From: Flavobacteriaceae bacterium
GTDB taxonomy: Bacteria > Bacteroidota > Bacteroidia > Flavobacteriales > Flavobacteriaceae
Assembly: GCA_027065775.1 (NCBI GenBank)
Contig: JAMONN010000062.1
Coordinates: 1 to 30,493, forward strand
DNA: 30,493 nt
Direction: 5' to 3'
Shown: positions 5,512 to 12,736 of the stretch, one piece after another
Layout of the letters: every line of letters begins with the position of its first letter
Numbering within the stretch: the stretch's first letter is position 1
The notes under the pieces: model-generated
The model's input: only the letters and a program-made list of their open reading frames with translations
The model's database searches: none
Told to the model about the DNA's origin: nothing
Made by a program: the position numbers and the translations under genes

Positions 5512-6204
5512 ATGCAAAACCCAACTTACATATTAAATCTAGAAACCTCGACTAAAAATTGTTCGGTTAGCATTTCATTAAACGGAAAAGTGTTAGCGTT
5601 AAAAGAAATTTGTGAAACAAATTTCTCTCACGCAGAAAAATTGACTCCTTTTATTAAGGATGTTTTAACAGAAGCAAAACTAACTTTAAAAAACTTATCC
5701 GCAATTGCAATAGGTAAAGGTCCAGGTTCTTTTACAGGTTTGCGTATTGGTGTTTCATCAGCAAAAGGACTTTGTTTTGGGTTGGATATTCCGTTAATTT
5801 CAATTCCTACTATGGAAATTTTAGCCAATGCAACAACCGTTAATGGTTATATTATTCCGGTATTAGATGCCAGAAGGCAAGAAGTTTACACGGCAGTTTT
5901 TAATAAAAATAAAAAAATTGTAAAAGAAACTTTTAATCATGTTTTAGAAGAAAATTCATTTTCAGAATATTTAGATAAAGATGAAGTTATTTTTTTAGGC
6001 GATGGCGTTACCAAAACAAAAGAAATAATTAAACATAAAAACGCAATTTTTTTAGATGATTTTCATCCTTCGGCAAAAGAAATGTGCAAACTAGCATTTG
6101 AAAAATTTAAAAATAAAGATTTTGAAGATGTTGCTTATTTTGAACCTTTTTACCTAAAAGACTTTTATGTTACGCCATCTAAGAAACAAAAAGTATTGTT
6201 GTAA
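5512..6204 (+). CDS. tsaB: tRNA threonylcarbamoyladenosine biosynthesis protein TsaB (YeaZ)
   Basis: 230 aa with the Kae1/YgjD-like fold lacking metal ligands and the motif AIAIGKGPGSFTGLRIGVSSAKGL. Confidence 0.85.
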   Translation: MQNPTYILNLETSTKNCSVSISLNGKVLALKEICETNFSHAEKLTPFIKDVLTEAKLTLKNLSAIAIGKGPGSFTGLRIGVSSAKGLCFGLDIPLISIPTMEILANATTVNGYIIPVLDARRQEVYTAVFNKNKKIVKETFNHVLEENSFSEYLDKDEVIFLGDGVTKTKEIIKHKNAIFLDDFHPSAKEMCKLAFEKFKNKDFEDVAYFEPFYLKDFYVTPSKKQKVLL

Positions 6205-6559
6205 AAAGAATTAGTACAATACACAGCACAATTAAAATTACACCTCTATTTTCTAAAGAAACTTTATTTAGTAAAGATATTTTATCTGTAGTTTCTTGAA
6301 ATAAAACAGCAAAACCCTCAGGCTCATTATGCTTATAAATTGTAACATCATACAATTTTAAAATTTCTAAAGATTTTTCAACATCTTTTTCAAACACCTG
6401 TAATTTTACGCCACCAATGGCATTAGATAAAAAATTATCCGTTTGTACCGTAAATTCATCTTTTAAAAAAACATAAATATCTTCAGATTCTAATTTACTT
6501 TTAATAATAAAAGATTCTTGTGGTAATTCAAAAGTAATTAATGTTATTAGGTTTTCCAT
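6179..6559 (-). CDS. DUF2007 (putative signal-transducing) domain protein with a C-terminal transmembrane anchor
   Basis: LESEDIYVFLKDEFTVQTDNFLSNAIGGVKLQVFEKDVEKSLEIL fits the DUF2007 consensus. There is a C-terminal hydrophobic helix. It starts 4 nt downstream of the WYL gene stop, which suggests co-transcription. Its 3' end overlaps the tsaB 3' end by 26 nt. Confidence 0.6.
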   Translation of the reverse strand: MENLITLITFELPQESFIIKSKLESEDIYVFLKDEFTVQTDNFLSNAIGGVKLQVFEKDVEKSLEILKLYDVTIYKHNEPEGFAVLFQETTDKISLLNKVSLENRGVILIVLCIVLILFTTILFVS

Positions 6560-6562
6560 AAA

Positions 6563-8143
6563 TTACAAGGTATAAAAAAGTTCTAAGACATCAATATTTT
6601 GTTGCTTGTTTTTAGAATGAAATTTCTGTAAAGTAGCGTTATCAATCAATTGAATGCCGCCAATACGAATGTGACAATTAAAAATACTACTATTTTTAAC
6701 CAATAAACCGATTTCATTTTGTGTGAATTTCTTGTTATGAGAGGATAAAATAATATCTAACCTATTTGTTTCAGTAGCTTCTTTTAAATGTATTTTTATT
6801 GAAAATCCTTTACTGTCTGTTTTTTGAAACCAGTTTTTTGTAATTAATCCTTCATTTGATTTCTTGTAAAAAACACTTTTTTCTAATTTGATTTTAGGAT
6901 TTAAAACTTTTAAAATGTTCAGAAAGTTATTATTAAATAAAATACTTTCTATTTTAGGAATTTCATCAAATAAATCAGTAATAAACTCCATTTTAGGAGT
7001 TTGAATTTTAAAATAAGCATTTAATAACTGATTCATTTTCTTAATCTCTCGCAAACTAAAAACCTGATTCAAAATTGCAGAACCTTTATATTTTAGTTTA
7101 TTAGACATATCTATTAATCCTTTTTCTGAAATTTCGGTTTGATAAGATTCTGTCGCATACTTTAAGCGCTGTTTGATTTTTCTTTTTAAAAAAGGTGGCG
7201 AAATTACCCGAATGCCATCACCTAAACCTAAAATCTCTTTTTCTAATTCAAAATTATGTTGCACATTTAAAGAAATAGTAATGCCAAAATTGTCTTTTTT
7301 AATCAGTTTTTGCGAAGCGTGAAAAGGTTTAGTTTGGACATAAGGCGCATGTTTATTATAAACAAAAAGTATGATTTCTTCGGTTTTTAAATCCGGATTT
7401 ATAGAAACGCCAATCGCCTTACTAAAATAATGTTCTAAGTCATATTTACTGTTGTATTTAAACTCAATTTCACTTTCTTGTAAGTCAATAATTCGATCTA
7501 AAGCTAAATTTACCAAATGCTCTTGCCCGTCTCTAATACCAATAACAAACCAACGATTTCTAAATTCTTTTAGTAGATAAGCATGAAAGTCAAAAGTTGC
7601 CGCTTGTCTTGCTTTAAAGGATTTGTAGGTTATTTTAATTGCTTTTTTAGTAATTATTGTTTGGTACAATGTGTCTAAAAAATTTAATCCTTTTAAGTTT
7701 TCATTCTTTTCAAATTCAATTACTGGTTTGGTTCTTGTCTGATTAGAATATACATGATCTTCCAATTTTTGAATAACACCATTTAAAGCATCAAAATGCG
7801 AAAAACCTTTAAATTGTTTTAAAAACGCAACGGATTCCGACAGTTTTTCTAAATCTTGACTACTAATTGGTAGATTGGTAATGCTATATTTTTCTTCTTC
7901 GTAGGTATAATATTTACGATCAACTACAATAATTGGTGCGTTGTAACCTAATTTGTCACTTCGCATATTTTGAATATCTAATTGAACAGTCCGTTTACTT
8001 ACATTACAATCTTTTCCTTCGTATTCGTATAAAGCGTCTGAACATTCTTCTATTAAATCGTCTAAAGTCCATTTTCTAAACCTGTTTTGCAAACATTTAT
8101 CAATGGTTTTATATCTAATTAATGCGTTTTTATTTAGTGCCAT
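6563..8143 (-). CDS. WYL-domain transcriptional regulator (HTH-WYL-WCX) with an extra ~190-aa C-terminal domain of unknown function
   Basis: The N-terminus MALNKNALIRYKTIDKCLQNRFRKWTLDDLIEECSDALYEY is the hallmark HTH start of Bacteroidetes WYL regulators. A WYL-like core (HAYLLKEFRNRWFVIGIRDGQEHLVNL) and a WCX-like segment (GLGDGIRVISPPFLKRKIKQRL) follow. At 526 aa it is much longer than typical ~320-aa members. Confidence 0.7.
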   Translation of the reverse strand: MALNKNALIRYKTIDKCLQNRFRKWTLDDLIEECSDALYEYEGKDCNVSKRTVQLDIQNMRSDKLGYNAPIIVVDRKYYTYEEEKYSITNLPISSQDLEKLSESVAFLKQFKGFSHFDALNGVIQKLEDHVYSNQTRTKPVIEFEKNENLKGLNFLDTLYQTIITKKAIKITYKSFKARQAATFDFHAYLLKEFRNRWFVIGIRDGQEHLVNLALDRIIDLQESEIEFKYNSKYDLEHYFSKAIGVSINPDLKTEEIILFVYNKHAPYVQTKPFHASQKLIKKDNFGITISLNVQHNFELEKEILGLGDGIRVISPPFLKRKIKQRLKYATESYQTEISEKGLIDMSNKLKYKGSAILNQVFSLREIKKMNQLLNAYFKIQTPKMEFITDLFDEIPKIESILFNNNFLNILKVLNPKIKLEKSVFYKKSNEGLITKNWFQKTDSKGFSIKIHLKEATETNRLDIILSSHNKKFTQNEIGLLVKNSSIFNCHIRIGGIQLIDNATLQKFHSKNKQQNIDVLELFYTL

Positions 8144-8233
8144 TTAAAAATTTTGCAAGTATTTATTGTATATTTATTTTGATTATCAGCAGTTTAACTG
8201 AATAGCACTTCAAAAATAAGTAATATTTTTTTA

Positions 8234-8254
8234 TTGCGCAAAAAGATTGCGTAC
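8234..8254. promoter_or_regulatory. operator-like inverted repeat TTGCGCAA-aaaga-TTGCGTAc, copy 1
   Basis: Lies in the divergent WYL / RtcB-like intergenic region. A near-identical site (TTACGCAA-aaaga-TTGCGTAA) recurs at 11943-11963 with conserved flanks. Confidence 0.45.
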
Positions 8255-8298
8255 TAGTTTAGAAATATTTGCAATGTAAATAATTCAAAGTAGCTATT

Positions 8299-8329
8299 CC
8301 CTGAGGTTTATTGGACGAAAACATCAGGG
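8299..8329 (+). promoter_or_regulatory. conserved leader hairpin (11-bp stem, 1 mismatch), copy 1, 40 nt upstream of the RtcB-like start
   Basis: ccctgaggttt / attggacga / aaacatcaggg. The paralogous copy at 12007-12036 carries compensatory changes (C-G to T-A and a repaired pair). Confidence 0.45.
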
Positions 8330-11755: not shown

Positions 11756-11830
11756 GGTGTTATTGTTGAAACTGGTTTATCATAGAAGGTTGTGAACTTT
11801 CCGTTACGAGTTCGAGTCTCGTATAACACC
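11756..11830 (+). tRNA. tRNA-His (anticodon GTG), with the encoded G-1
   Basis: G-1 is followed by acceptor GTGTTAT / ATAACAC and discriminator C73. Anticodon stem GAAGG / CTTTC with loop ttGTGaa and T-arm ACGAG-TTCGAGT-CTCGT. Confidence 0.8.
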
Positions 11831-11942
11831 CAAAATAGAAATATAGTTTAATTAGATAAAACCTTGGTTTACGACATCAAAAATGCGAGTTCTCCCGAAG
11901 TTTCGGGATTGCTATTTCTACAAAAAATAAAAATAATTTTTA

Positions 11943-11963
11943 TTACGCAAAAAGATTGCGTAA
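11943..11963. promoter_or_regulatory. operator-like perfect inverted repeat TTACGCAA-aaaga-TTGCGTAA, copy 2
   Basis: Perfect 8-bp arms with a 5-bp spacer. The flanks (aataatttttatta...) match copy 1 at 8225-8254. Confidence 0.45.
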
Positions 11964-12006
11964 CAGATTAAGTTATTTGTATCATAATTAAATACAACTA
12001 GTAATT

Positions 12007-12036
12007 CTCTGATGTTTAGTGGATGAAACATCAGAG
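12007..12036 (+). promoter_or_regulatory. conserved leader hairpin, copy 2 (perfect 11-bp stem)
   Basis: ctctgatgttt / agtggatg / aaacatcagag. It lies at the same 44-45 nt distance from the palindrome as copy 1. Confidence 0.45.
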
Positions 12037-12238
12037 ATTGTTTGATAATTAATAAGTTCTTTAAAATATAATTTCAATTTGGTTTGAAATGTAAAATTTT
12101 TCCGTTAAAACGGAAAACAAGGTAGAAAAAAGTAATTAGAAAACCTGATACGTGTTTCTGAATAGCACTATGGTATTGTACTTAATAAGTAACAATATGC
12201 CGTTTCGGTTATTTTTGTTTTACCACACCTTGTAGGTC

Positions 12239-12404
12239 GAAGGTTCGATTCCTTCTCTAGTTTATTCTAGATAGTTCAGCGGTTAGAACAACAAGTTGCT
12301 TGTTACAGGTTCGAGTCCTGTTTCCAATACTTAACAATATTTGTTGGAATAACTCAATTGGTAGAGTAGCACTACACTTTCAATGTAGGTTCGAAGAAGA
12401 TCAC
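12239..12404 (+). pseudogene. cluster of degenerate tRNA remnants (T-arms and D-arms without functional acceptor or anticodon stems)
   Basis: (a) 12239-12255, gaaggttcgattccttc, has 16 bp identical to the tRNA-Ser T-arm at 11258-11273. (b) ~12266-12329 has a perfect D-arm (gttc-agcggtta-gaac) and T-arm (acagg-ttcgagt-cctgt), but its anticodon arm is 15 nt and the acceptor strands do not pair. (c) ~12346-12404 has a D-arm (actc-aattggta-gagt) and a truncated T-loop (ggttcgaag). Confidence 0.4.
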
Positions 12405-12736
12405 TTCTAAAAAGATCGATGAATTTAAGGTTCATTTAATGAAGTTGATTACTTCTAAAAATAATCAAAACCAAAAGAAATCTAAAACAAGTCGGTTATT
12501 ACGTTTACGCAATAACACTCTTAAAAAAACCTTGAAGTTTAAGGATTCCGTACTATTAATTAGTATTACTTTTTAAAAGAATTGTTTTGTACAACTACAA
12601 ACTTGTAGTTTTATAATTCACTTTTGTTTAATAACTAATATTAGGCAATGTTACTCAATTAAACTTCCGTATTTAAAAGAGGGTTTGTTTTAGATGTCTT
12701 TTACAAAAACGAATAATAAAATTAAATATAAATAAA

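Follow-up and report, generated by a model that had tools for sequence, protein, structure and literature searches.

Several described systems resemble the locus reported here. In Anabaena sp. PCC 7120, a silent L-array of 26 tRNA genes, rtcB (all3526) and the slipin gene alr0740 are repressed by the ribbon-helix-helix (RHH) protein TrcR and are induced by translation inhibitors (PMC8421152, PMC10272220; all3526 and alr0740 are in Table 1 of the latter). Salmonella carries the RNA-repair operon rsr-yrlBA-rtcBA and the YrlA Y RNAs (PMC4201824, PMC7790460, bioRxiv 10.1101/312249). RtcB is also found in RNA or ribosome repair modules with RlaP (PMC12776372) and, as far as Tian et al. 2022 is cited in PMC12776372, with PrfH. 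We analyzed a stretch of 30,493 nucleotides (~29% GC) from a Flavobacteriaceae bacterium (GenBank assembly GCA_027065775.1, contig JAMONN010000062.1), hereafter called the window, in which a WYL-domain regulator, an RtcB-family RNA ligase, an array of tRNA genes and a slipin gene lie next to one another. An earlier note on this DNA had pointed out most of these features and held their combination to be undescribed, which was too strong a claim because the Anabaena TrcR regulon unites a tRNA array, rtcB and a slipin gene (PMC8421152, PMC10272220).

Gene order was taken from the listing of open reading frames (ORFs) and from profile searches (Pfam, NCBIfam). We compared 19 homologous loci totaling ~390 kb, 17 of them centered on RtcB homologues and two on SPFH homologues; the comparisons were made on 21-kb stretches, and tRNA content is given per locus rather than per genome. 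Profile searches, ARAGORN, Rfam and an operator scan confirmed the reported cluster of features. Judged from these sequence comparisons, the region is probably an accessory translation-damage response island of Bacteroidota, with three transcription units and two independent control layers. We also propose, more tentatively and with slightly less than even confidence, that a tandem attenuator in front of the array would serve as a direct homeostat of the tRNA pool (Gln-UUG, Leu-UAG, His-GUG, Arg-ACG, Cys, Ser-GCU and others) inside a WYL-controlled RNA-repair regulon with a Ro-independent tRNA mimic, the whole being a joint countermeasure to anticodon nucleases by repair, decoy and resupply. 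The idea of one functional unit, put forward in the earlier note, stands in the sense of a single functional neighborhood; WYL control over the tRNAs, decayed tRNA remnants, an SPFH gene that merely flanks the region and membership of the toxin-antitoxin (TA) pair do not.

The tRNA array lies in a non-coding stretch of 2.4 kb between the TA-like pair and the SPFH gene. ARAGORN and Rfam agreed on seven tRNAs at 11093-11831 (Ser-UGA, Ser-GCU, Tyr-GUA, Pro-UGG, Glu-UUC, Leu-UAG and His-GUG), with GC contents of 36-50% and Rfam scores of 29-65 bits. A previous count of eight tRNAs in 740 bp was essentially right as an inventory; the array comprises nine units, seven intact and two disrupted, in 828 bp.

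11093-11180, plus strand: tRNA-Ser(UGA)
11190-11277, plus strand: tRNA-Ser(GCU)
11289-11372, plus strand: tRNA-Tyr(GUA)
11375-11432, plus strand: structured element inside the array, with an outer stem (11375-82 / 11425-32) and an inner stem-loop
11437-11509, plus strand: tRNA-Pro(UGG)
11514-11586, plus strand: tRNA-Glu(UUC)
11591-11664, plus strand: tRNA-Leu(UAG), 74 nt, without the long variable arm
~11669-11748, plus strand: tRNA-Gln(UUG)-like gene with a hairpin insert in the T-loop (relative to the intact Gln gene of locus L021), not called by ARAGORN
11757-11831, plus strand: tRNA-His(GUG) with encoded G-1 and C73
~11837-11920, plus strand: tRNA-Arg(ACG)-like gene, interrupted in the T-loop by hairpin TCCCGAAGTTTCGGGA (Rfam tRNA, 17.9 bits)

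A homologous array was present downstream of RtcB and on the same strand in seven of the 17 RtcB loci (window, L003, L004, L021, L023, L026 and L027), always between the two operator-controlled units described below, and further fragments of it were found in metagenome matches (L009, L013, L014 and L018). It has a constant 3′ core of Gln-UUG, arm-less Leu-UAG, His, sometimes Phe, and Arg-ACG, preceded by a 5′ part that varies in content (Ser, Ser, Pro, Cys, Tyr, Asp, Glu) and in which genes are duplicated, partly repeated in tandem or disrupted. Even close relatives differ, since L021 has 10 tRNAs, L022 has none and the window has seven plus two broken ones. The array also occupies unrelated genomic contexts in different families. 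This variability fits an accessory element. The arm-less Leu(UAG), clearly derived from a class II tRNA-Leu(UAG), forms a perfect cloverleaf in which 11 of 20 pairs were changed on both sides among 10 sequences. Because its pairs show compensatory changes, the array is under selection for tRNA structure. The outer stem of the structured element inside the array likewise covaries between loci, and the loop of this element is an Asp-anticodon-like CUGUCUC (11393-11399). The Arg(ACG) gene is intact in L021, L004, L023, L026 and L027, and Gln(UUG) is intact in L021. Since L021 has both genes intact, the T-loop hairpins of the window look like recent disruptive insertions of a palindrome; the Gln(UUG)-like gene of the window is probably disabled.

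Several other explanations of the array were considered and rejected. Archaeal-type (bulge-helix-bulge) introns in the T-loops of Gln and Arg, with RtcB as the splicing ligase, do not agree with the intact genes of L021, and no splicing endonuclease was found. The first array tRNA matched the tRNA-Sec model (above the gathering score in L004), but its anticodon is UGA rather than UCA, and it was therefore assigned as tRNA-Ser. As to a phage origin, a scan of viral contigs for the exact pattern was empty and BLAST against phage genomes gave only weak similarity, the closest being 71-74% over 135 nt to the tRNA-Ser pairs of T5-like phages. A plasmid search gave no match.

Some smaller features of the array were also seen. 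CAA(A) follows each of its tRNAs (11093-11831), and CCA is not encoded. The first pair is G1-U72 in most Leu-UAG copies. In the Gln and Arg genes, the T-loop is interrupted after its TTC by the same kind of small palindrome (TCCCGAA-N-TTCGGGA / TTCCAAATTTCGGA), and L021 lacks both insertions; a similar palindrome is found at 10654-10672, between the two units described next. Such palindromes may represent a very small mobile element with T-loop DNA as its target. Tandem repeats of ~62 nt in L004 (14740-14980) and L023 (15020-15870) each combine a hairpin with the tRNA-Pro 3′ end, and partial tRNA-Pro copies are scattered through the arrays of these two loci, which suggests repeated recombination or integration at tRNA 3′ ends.

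The sequence between the TA-like pair and the first tRNA contains two units of the same construction, each predicted to be an attenuator, with a conserved hairpin between them.

10403-10612, plus strand: predicted attenuator unit 1, with a TAnnTTTG promoter box TACATTTG (10403-10410), ORF1, an antiterminator arm (~10517-10528) and an intrinsic terminator (10581-10612)
10436-10549, plus strand: leader ORF1, 37 codons
10748-10771, plus strand: conserved hairpin between the units, with loop GAGAGACAG; CAATTGRGAGACAG in seven of seven array loci
10888-11079, plus strand: predicted attenuator unit 2, with a promoter box TATATTTG (10888-10895), ORF2, an antiterminator arm (11007-11015) and an intrinsic terminator (11053-11079)
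10920-11027, plus strand: leader ORF2, 35 codons

The micro-ORF with a terminator that had been suspected upstream of the array corresponds to ORF1 and its terminator. All seven array loci share the two-unit layout (box, ORF1, terminator, hairpin, box, ORF2, terminator), with an ORF1 of 32-41 codons in the same arrangement. Terminator 2 is highly conserved (GCATCTCC-N-GAGATGC-T7) and ends 14 nt before the first tRNA. The gap between the ORF2 stop codon and the terminator is 25-33 nt in six of the seven loci, L026 having the same layout by eye, and ORF1 is arranged likewise. We folded the RNA as it would be before synthesis of the terminator 3′ arm. The 5′ arm of terminator 2 then paired with a segment ending 9-17 nt upstream of the last base of the ORF2 stop codon in seven of seven loci (12-13 nt in five), and shuffled upstream sequence equaled this pairing in 0.5-21% of trials per locus. 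ORF1 and its terminator showed the same kind of alternative pairing. In the window, the antiterminator arm GGAGAAUG (GGAG..AUG) faces the terminator 5′ arm GCAUCUCC and the 3′ arm GAGAUGC. The corresponding elements are GGAGCGUG (GGAG.GUG), GCACCUCC and GAGGUGC in L023, and GCGGAUG, GCAUCCGC and GCGGAUGC in L026, such that the antiterminator and both terminator arms covary three ways in these two loci. The window and L004 read the antiterminator motif in different frames but retain its nucleotides. Because the motif persists where the reading frame over it differs, it is likely to function at the RNA level. Taken together, the predicted layout is the anatomy of a ribosome-dependent attenuator.

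These results also bear on the possibility that the small ORFs encode functional small proteins, or that the units are stand-alone small RNA (sRNA) genes, with the array transcribed constitutively from its own promoter or by read-through. In its favor, the TAnnTTTG boxes of both units resemble the consensus, their terminators are strong, the length of the ORFs is conserved, and the indels that distinguish the window from L021 are in frame. However, the peptide sequences are poorly conserved between families, the nucleotides that pair with the terminator are retained although the reading frame over them differs, the antiterminator covaries and sits at a fixed register, and no promoter box is evident between terminator 2 (ending at 11079) and the first tRNA (11093). 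We consider this alternative quite improbable.

Both leaders are enriched in codons that match the array of the same locus. Such codons made up 117 of 268 ORF2 codons (44%) compared with 61.5 expected (23%; pooled binomial P = 6e-14), and 95 of 255 ORF1 codons (37%) compared with 58.6 expected (23%; pooled binomial P = 2e-7); the expected fractions were those of long ORFs of the same loci, the tRNA sets of the arrays were assigned partly by eye, and the pooled P values overstate independence because the seven loci are homologous. All 14 comparisons of a leader with its array went in the same direction, and the enrichment was confined to the reading frame (0.44 versus 0.25 and 0.22 in the other frames for ORF2, and 0.37 versus 0.25 and 0.24 for ORF1). 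It was carried by the constant core of the array. In ORF2, codons for Gln were enriched 2.7-fold, His 2.3-fold and Ser-AGY 2.1-fold; Cys codons were enriched 3-fold in ORF2 and 5-fold in ORF1. Leu-CUN codons were enriched 2.2-fold in ORF2 whereas Leu-UUR codons were not, and Arg-CGH codons were enriched 3.3-fold whereas Arg-AGR codons were down to 0.2-fold. The contrast within Arg and within Leu suggests that isoacceptors rather than amino acids would be sensed.

The loop GAGAGACAG of the hairpin between the units is perfectly complementary to the CUGUCUC loop of the in-array hairpin (11386-11406), and this pair is kept in seven of seven array loci; in L021, the in-array member of the pair is the anticodon loop (with U37) of a complete tRNA-Asp. 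The pair could provide kissing-loop feedback, a two-orientation protein site or a recombination site. We rejected an invertible promoter, for which the inverted 9-11-nt core (GAGAGACAG / CTGTCTCT) flanking the ORF2 promoter and the first tRNAs had been considered: there is no recombinase gene nearby, and the right copy is the tRNA-Asp anticodon loop in L021. A T-box riboswitch or other known RNA family in the leaders was also rejected, as Rfam gave only tRNA, sub-threshold YrlA and a chance-level Phe_leader match (29.6 bits compared with 55).

The other two transcription units are each preceded by a copy of a palindromic candidate operator with the 19-bp consensus TACGCAA-N5-TTGCGYA.

6563-8143, minus strand: WYL and WCX regulator, 526 aa (Pfam)
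8235-8253, unstranded: operator 1, TGCGCAA-AAAGA-TTGCGTA, in the WYL/RtcB intergenic region at the RtcB promoter
8299-8329, plus strand: RtcB leader hairpin, CCCUGA..UGGACGAAAAC..UCAGGG
8369-9796, plus strand: divergent RtcB-family RNA ligase, 475 aa (PF01139, E = 3.8e-35)
11944-11962, unstranded: operator 2, TACGCAA-AAAGA-TTGCGTA, 24 nt past the last tRNA-like gene
11972-11979, plus strand: promoter box of the second operator unit
12006-12037, plus strand: 5′ hairpin in the second operator unit, a homologue of the hairpin in the RtcB leader
12229-12396, plus strand: permuted tRNA-like (YrlA-like) modules, module I at 12229-12295 and module II at 12296-12396
12737-13834, plus strand: slipin/SPFH protein, 365 aa, last gene of the second operator unit (Band_7, E = 1.4e-31)

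The two sites in the window compare with 0.42 expected by chance, and both have a TTTG-type promoter box and then a homologous 5′ hairpin downstream of them. A regulatory module shared by the ligase gene and an RNA locus, as the earlier note had supposed, is thereby borne out. When sites with up to two mismatches were counted across the 19 loci, nearly all of them lay either in front of RtcB, at its promoter, or where the second unit begins. An operator precedes RtcB in 15 loci, in 13 of which the WYL gene is divergent from it (13 of the 17 RtcB loci). The pairing of WYL and RtcB genes with a common operator thus recurs across families of Bacteroidota. The second operator directly follows the array in the window, L004, L021, L023 and L026, directly precedes the SPFH gene with no array between in L022 and L015, and stands before a 747-aa protein in L028. 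From these positions we infer that the palindrome is the operator of the WYL protein and that the regulon has at least two promoters. WYL control of the array itself had been suggested and did not hold up: no operator lies before the array, which has promoters of its own and two leader-ORF/terminator units. It follows that the WYL protein probably controls RtcB and the downstream RNA/slipin unit and not the tRNAs.

The long WYL-domain regulator was verified, with both WYL (35 bits, cutoff 21.8) and WCX (31.9 bits, cutoff 23.9) above the Pfam cutoffs. It shares these two domains with the HTH-WYL-WCX regulators PafBC, BrxR, CapW and DriD, and the candidate operator lies in the promoter region divergent from its gene. 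Its N-terminal ~150 aa are kept among homologues. Its C-terminal ~190 aa (6563-7150, minus strand) are homologous to the PhyH-type dioxygenase domain of longer relatives in L004 and Olleya (L031), whose WYL homologues have a Pfam PhyH domain with a WHQD motif. In the window clade WFQK replaces WHQD, with loss of the HxD iron ligands, and ~30 residues are deleted. Because of these losses the PhyH-like domain of the window protein is probably non-catalytic.

The ligase is a divergent member of its family, as had been proposed. Its PF01139 score is 122.4 bits (cutoff 27), the match covers only residues 188-443, and the protein falls far under all NCBIfam equivalog cutoffs, which places it in a divergent subfamily; this subfamily has more than 6000 homologues, mostly in Bacteroidota. 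In alignments with solved RtcB structures, residues D130, C133, N205/H206, H224, H320 and H366 match D95, C98, N202/H203, H234, H329 and H404 of Pyrococcus horikoshii RtcB. These are the metal-binding residues and the GMP-accepting histidine (H366), so that the full catalytic set is present, and we infer that the enzyme would reseal 2′,3′-cyclic-phosphate/5′-OH breaks. The RtcB leader hairpin was found in all WYL-linked loci with differing stem sequences. A terminator follows the window gene at 9803-9832, and the gene stands alone. Two genes for RlaP nucleotidyltransferases, a name reportedly given by Burroughs and Aravind in a 2016 article on RNA-repair systems (NAR), follow RtcB in the relatives L001, L003, L004 and L029; neither an RlaP gene nor an RF-1-family gene was found in the window.

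The regulon differs in content between loci. In loci without slipin (L004 15576-18465, L026 13061-15737 and L028 11445-13944), the second operator precedes a different leader, which has a tRNA-Lys-like gene split by a long insert, repeated GGTCAA-N7-CTTACTTC units with T-arm-like pieces behind each unit, and then a conserved protein of 747-749 aa with only weak Prok-RING_4 and NFACT_N matches. L029 (uncultured Dokdonia, 5248-19441) has four operator-like sites over a 14-kb island that holds two RlaP genes, RtcB, tRNAs Asp and Ser-GCU and an EF-G paralogue, with no adjacent WYL gene; the regulon may reach translation-factor paralogues.

The SPFH gene had been taken for a core gene flanking the region. 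We found that homologues of its product are annotated as slipin family, that the gene comes after the second operator in four loci (window, L021, L022 and L015), and that it is linked to RtcB and the operator in six loci (window, L021, L022, L015, L031 and L032). In slipin-centered look-ups in Olleya and Marivirga, both complete or large assemblies, RtcB lay ~1 kb downstream. Because these searches end beside RtcB, we count the slipin as a member of the system, and the right boundary of the feature is accordingly 13834 rather than 12700. The same result bears on the view that the whole neighborhood is coincidental, that is, a housekeeping tRNA cluster with decayed pseudogenes beside RtcB and a core SPFH gene. 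Ordinary core genes (tsaB, mobA and proC) do surround the region, and the copy number of the isoacceptors is known from the locus alone rather than from the genome. Yet the same array family lies between the same two operator sites in seven loci of different families and contexts, it is absent from the close relative L022, the supposed pseudogenes carry compensatory changes, and searches started from slipin return RtcB. We regard a coincidence as very improbable.

The richest version of the system was seen in L031 (Olleya sp., CP138988.1, 2903-13372), which has a WYL-PhyH gene, three operators, an RF-1-family (PrfH-like) gene and a metallophosphatase, then a 2-kb structured leader followed by slipin and RtcB. 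This leader has a tRNA-Pro directly behind an operator, several tRNA-like modules and a tRNA-Tyr-like gene whose anticodon loop is interrupted by ~90 nt.

A leader of ~780 nt separates operator 2 from the slipin gene. It is kept with compensatory changes in the window, L021 and L015/L013, and also in L022, where the array is missing. Module I of this leader (12229-12295) is a circularly permuted tRNA. It begins with the 3′ strand of the anticodon stem (CTTGT), the variable loop and the T arm, continues with the acceptor 3′ strand (TCTAG), a 6-nt loop and the acceptor 5′ strand (CTAGA), which form a closed acceptor hairpin, and ends with TA, the D arm, A and the 5′ strand of the anticodon stem (ACAAG). 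The Rfam family YrlA (RF02553) gave a full-length match at 12285-12396 with 35.4 bits (E = 3.7e-5), short of the gathering score of 69, and sub-threshold matches of 30-41 bits lie at equivalent places in L022, L015, L013 and L021 (five loci including the window). We built a covariance model, R1, on the permuted-tRNA fold of module I. It scored 81-86 bits in the window (81), L021, L022, L015, L013, L014 and L032, with weaker matches to the second modules and to copies in Olleya (L031). Among nine sequences, a small sample whose alignment was fitted to the model itself, 97.9% of cells were paired, and 10 of 16 pairs were changed on both sides, among them four of the five pairs of the closing helix that defines the permutation; slid controls gave 41-58% paired. 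By R1 and the pair counts, the RNA therefore has a tRNA-like domain that comprises a T arm, a D arm and an acceptor-like stem and is entered via the anticodon-stem position. The tRNA remnants of the earlier note do correspond to tRNA-like sequence at 12229-12396, which is a conserved permuted fold with compensatory changes rather than decayed DNA. No Ro60-binding helix was recognizable, the YrlA model positions for it being mostly deleted, and the Pfam lists of the annotated loci contain no TROVE (rsr) gene. Because neither was found, we do not file the leader RNA in the YrlA family, although it looks like the tRNA mimic of YrlA.

A strongly conserved box, CCUGAUACGUGUUUCUGUAUAGCAC, lies at 12144-12175 of the window, upstream of the tRNA-like modules in the slipin leader, and is also found in L021, L022, L015, L031 and L032. 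In L006 (Rhizobiales, an alphaproteobacterium), a tRNA-like module at 9529-9602 scored 43.5 bits on R1 and lies ~400 nt upstream of an RtcB of 51% identity; it is possibly a genuine YrlA. A 45-aa ORF at 12439-12576 was rejected as a gene, since it is not conserved and the region is deleted in L021.

The permuted RNA and the unusual array tRNAs also suggest the main rival to resupply, in which both would be decoys that soak up anticodon nucleases or tRNA-targeting toxins, so that housekeeping tRNAs are protected and stalling on the leaders is relieved indirectly. This explanation would account for the non-canonical features of the array (the arm-less Leu(UAG) and the low Rfam scores), for the Asp anticodon loop with U37 in L021 and the isolated Asp-like stem-loops of other loci, and for a mimic whose closed acceptor end is not chargeable; sponge or competitor roles have also been proposed for the Anabaena array tRNAs and for YrlA. 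On the other hand, the array tRNAs retain full cloverleaves with identity elements (His has G-1/C73, Leu has A73, and Ser and Tyr have long arms), the acceptor stems covary, which a pure anticodon-nuclease decoy would not obviously need, and the match between leader codons and array tRNAs is most simply explained by supply. We think a decoy function fairly unlikely, though it is the strongest of the alternatives, and lean toward an array that would resupply tRNAs.

In the model that we propose, the WYL/WCX protein would bind the palindrome overlapping two promoters and repress both until a ligand relieves repression. Other WYL regulators respond to single-stranded nucleic acids; broken RNA as the ligand here would be a guess. 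The first promoter would drive the RtcB-family ligase, which would reseal broken RNAs, and the second would drive the ~780-nt leader with its permuted tRNA-like modules and then the slipin membrane protein. The tRNA mimic could compete for, or scaffold, tRNA-binding enzymes or nucleases; it would not be charged because its acceptor end is closed. The array, which has no operator, would be controlled independently of the WYL layer by two tandem ribosome-dependent attenuators in series. A ribosome that reaches the ORF stop codon would cover the antiterminator segment and allow the terminator to form, whereas a ribosome stalled earlier would leave the segment free, so that the antiterminator forms and the array is transcribed. 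If attenuation works in this way in vivo and the array tRNAs decode, stalling at the leader codons would report depletion of array-type tRNAs, for example by anticodon nucleases, and lead to their resupply, closing the loop.

Several observations count against this model besides the homology of the loci pooled for the P values and the array assignments made by eye. The matching codons are dispersed along the leaders instead of forming the runs known from classical attenuators, many other leader codons (Lys, Ile, Asn and Leu-UUR) are of kinds that the array does not serve, and L021 has Ser codons in its leader and no Ser tRNA in its array. Terminator 2 was not listed by a simple terminator scan, though RNAfold folds it. 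The array is absent from 10 of the 17 RtcB loci and hence optional, its isoacceptor copies are known from the 21-kb loci alone, and its odd tRNAs (arm-less Leu, G1-U72, low scores and two broken genes) may decode poorly. As for the regulator, no helix-turn-helix (HTH) was matched in the WYL protein by Pfam at E <= 0.01 or by sequence in the PDB, and only position and co-occurrence connect it with the operator.

The remaining genes of the region are listed below.

5512-6204, plus strand: TsaB (profile search)
6179-6559, minus strand: small protein of 126 aa, encoded downstream of WYL, with a hydrophobic segment in its C-terminal part
9830-10120, minus strand: ParE toxin (ParE_toxin, E = 2.3e-8)
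10101-10355, minus strand: putative antitoxin, 84 aa, overlapping the ParE gene by 20 nt
13919-15070, minus strand: MobA/MobB fusion

The 126-aa protein had been described as a DUF2007 membrane partner of the WYL protein. A small protein with a hydrophobic segment is indeed encoded beside WYL, while its similarity to DUF2007 is weak (20.2 bits, Pfam cutoff 25.7); a gene resembling it lies beside WYL in L022 and near tsaB in L021, and its membership in the system is uncertain. Of the supposed RelE/ParE toxin-antitoxin pair, the ParE toxin was matched and the 84-aa partner had no family match in Pfam or NCBIfam. Because the pair is absent from the close relatives L021 and L022, we consider it an incidental, strain-specific insertion that does not belong to the system. 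At ~2500-3715 on the plus strand (L019 4134-5345), ~4.6 kb upstream of the island, lies a gene for an HflX-type GTPase (ribosome splitting/rescue), probably a coincidental core gene.

The roles of bacterial RtcB and of accessory tRNA arrays are open questions, and the locus joins the two physically in a phylum in which neither is known to have been studied. Should the attenuator function in the predicted way, it would to our knowledge be the first case of tRNA genes under a leader-peptide switch, and the codon set of the leaders would show which tRNAs are attacked in nature. The locus also extends Y-RNA-like tRNA mimics to a context without Ro60 and ties slipin proteins to translation-damage responses in two distant phyla. 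In the part of the literature that could be searched, we found no description of a leader-peptide attenuator controlling tRNA genes or of a WYL-controlled RtcB.

Comparison with the Anabaena TrcR regulon reveals the same association of an accessory tRNA array with RtcB and a slipin/SPFH protein, and in both cases rtcB and partner genes have a common repressor operator, a candidate one in the window. The Anabaena stress response is silent in normal growth and its array is induced when translation is impaired. The regulator is a ribbon-helix-helix protein acting at direct repeats in Anabaena and a WYL/WCX protein with a palindrome in the window. In Anabaena the operator is on the array promoter; in the window it is at RtcB and at the unit after the array, and at neither array promoter, with Olleya (L031) being nearer to the Anabaena layout in that tRNA-Pro is directly behind an operator. 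The Anabaena array has 26 genes and is on a megaplasmid far from rtcB, whereas the arrays of the window family have 7-10 genes between two operator units. The window also has a tRNA-mimic RNA, and none has been described for the Anabaena regulon.

As in the Salmonella operon, RtcB of the window appears to be co-regulated with a non-coding RNA that bears a tRNA-like domain, and the Salmonella operon is likewise induced by a ligand-sensing regulator. That regulator is the sigma-54 CARF activator RtcR, as opposed to WYL in the window, and the window loci lack RtcA and, where annotated with Pfam, a Ro60/TROVE gene. YrlA scores reach only about half the gathering score, and unlike Salmonella YrlA the window RNA is the leader of a slipin gene and consists of at least two chained modules. 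Parts of the RtcB-RlaP and RtcB-PrfH modules were seen in relatives (RlaP in L001, L003, L004 and L029; an RF-1-family gene in Olleya) and not in the window.

With the trp, his, leu and pheST attenuators, the predicted units share a short leader ORF before a terminator, an antiterminator that overlaps the end of the ORF and an enrichment of the sensed codons. They differ in that they precede tRNAs rather than biosynthetic enzymes or synthetases, in that the codons to be sensed are of several kinds, matching an array of different tRNAs, where the known leaders have a run of one codon, and in being two attenuators in series. What sets this locus apart from the Anabaena regulon is the WYL regulator, the physical clustering of all parts, the Ro-independent tRNA mimic and an array split from the repressor circuit under predicted codon-matched attenuators; the tRNA-matched tandem attenuator may be new in its own right.

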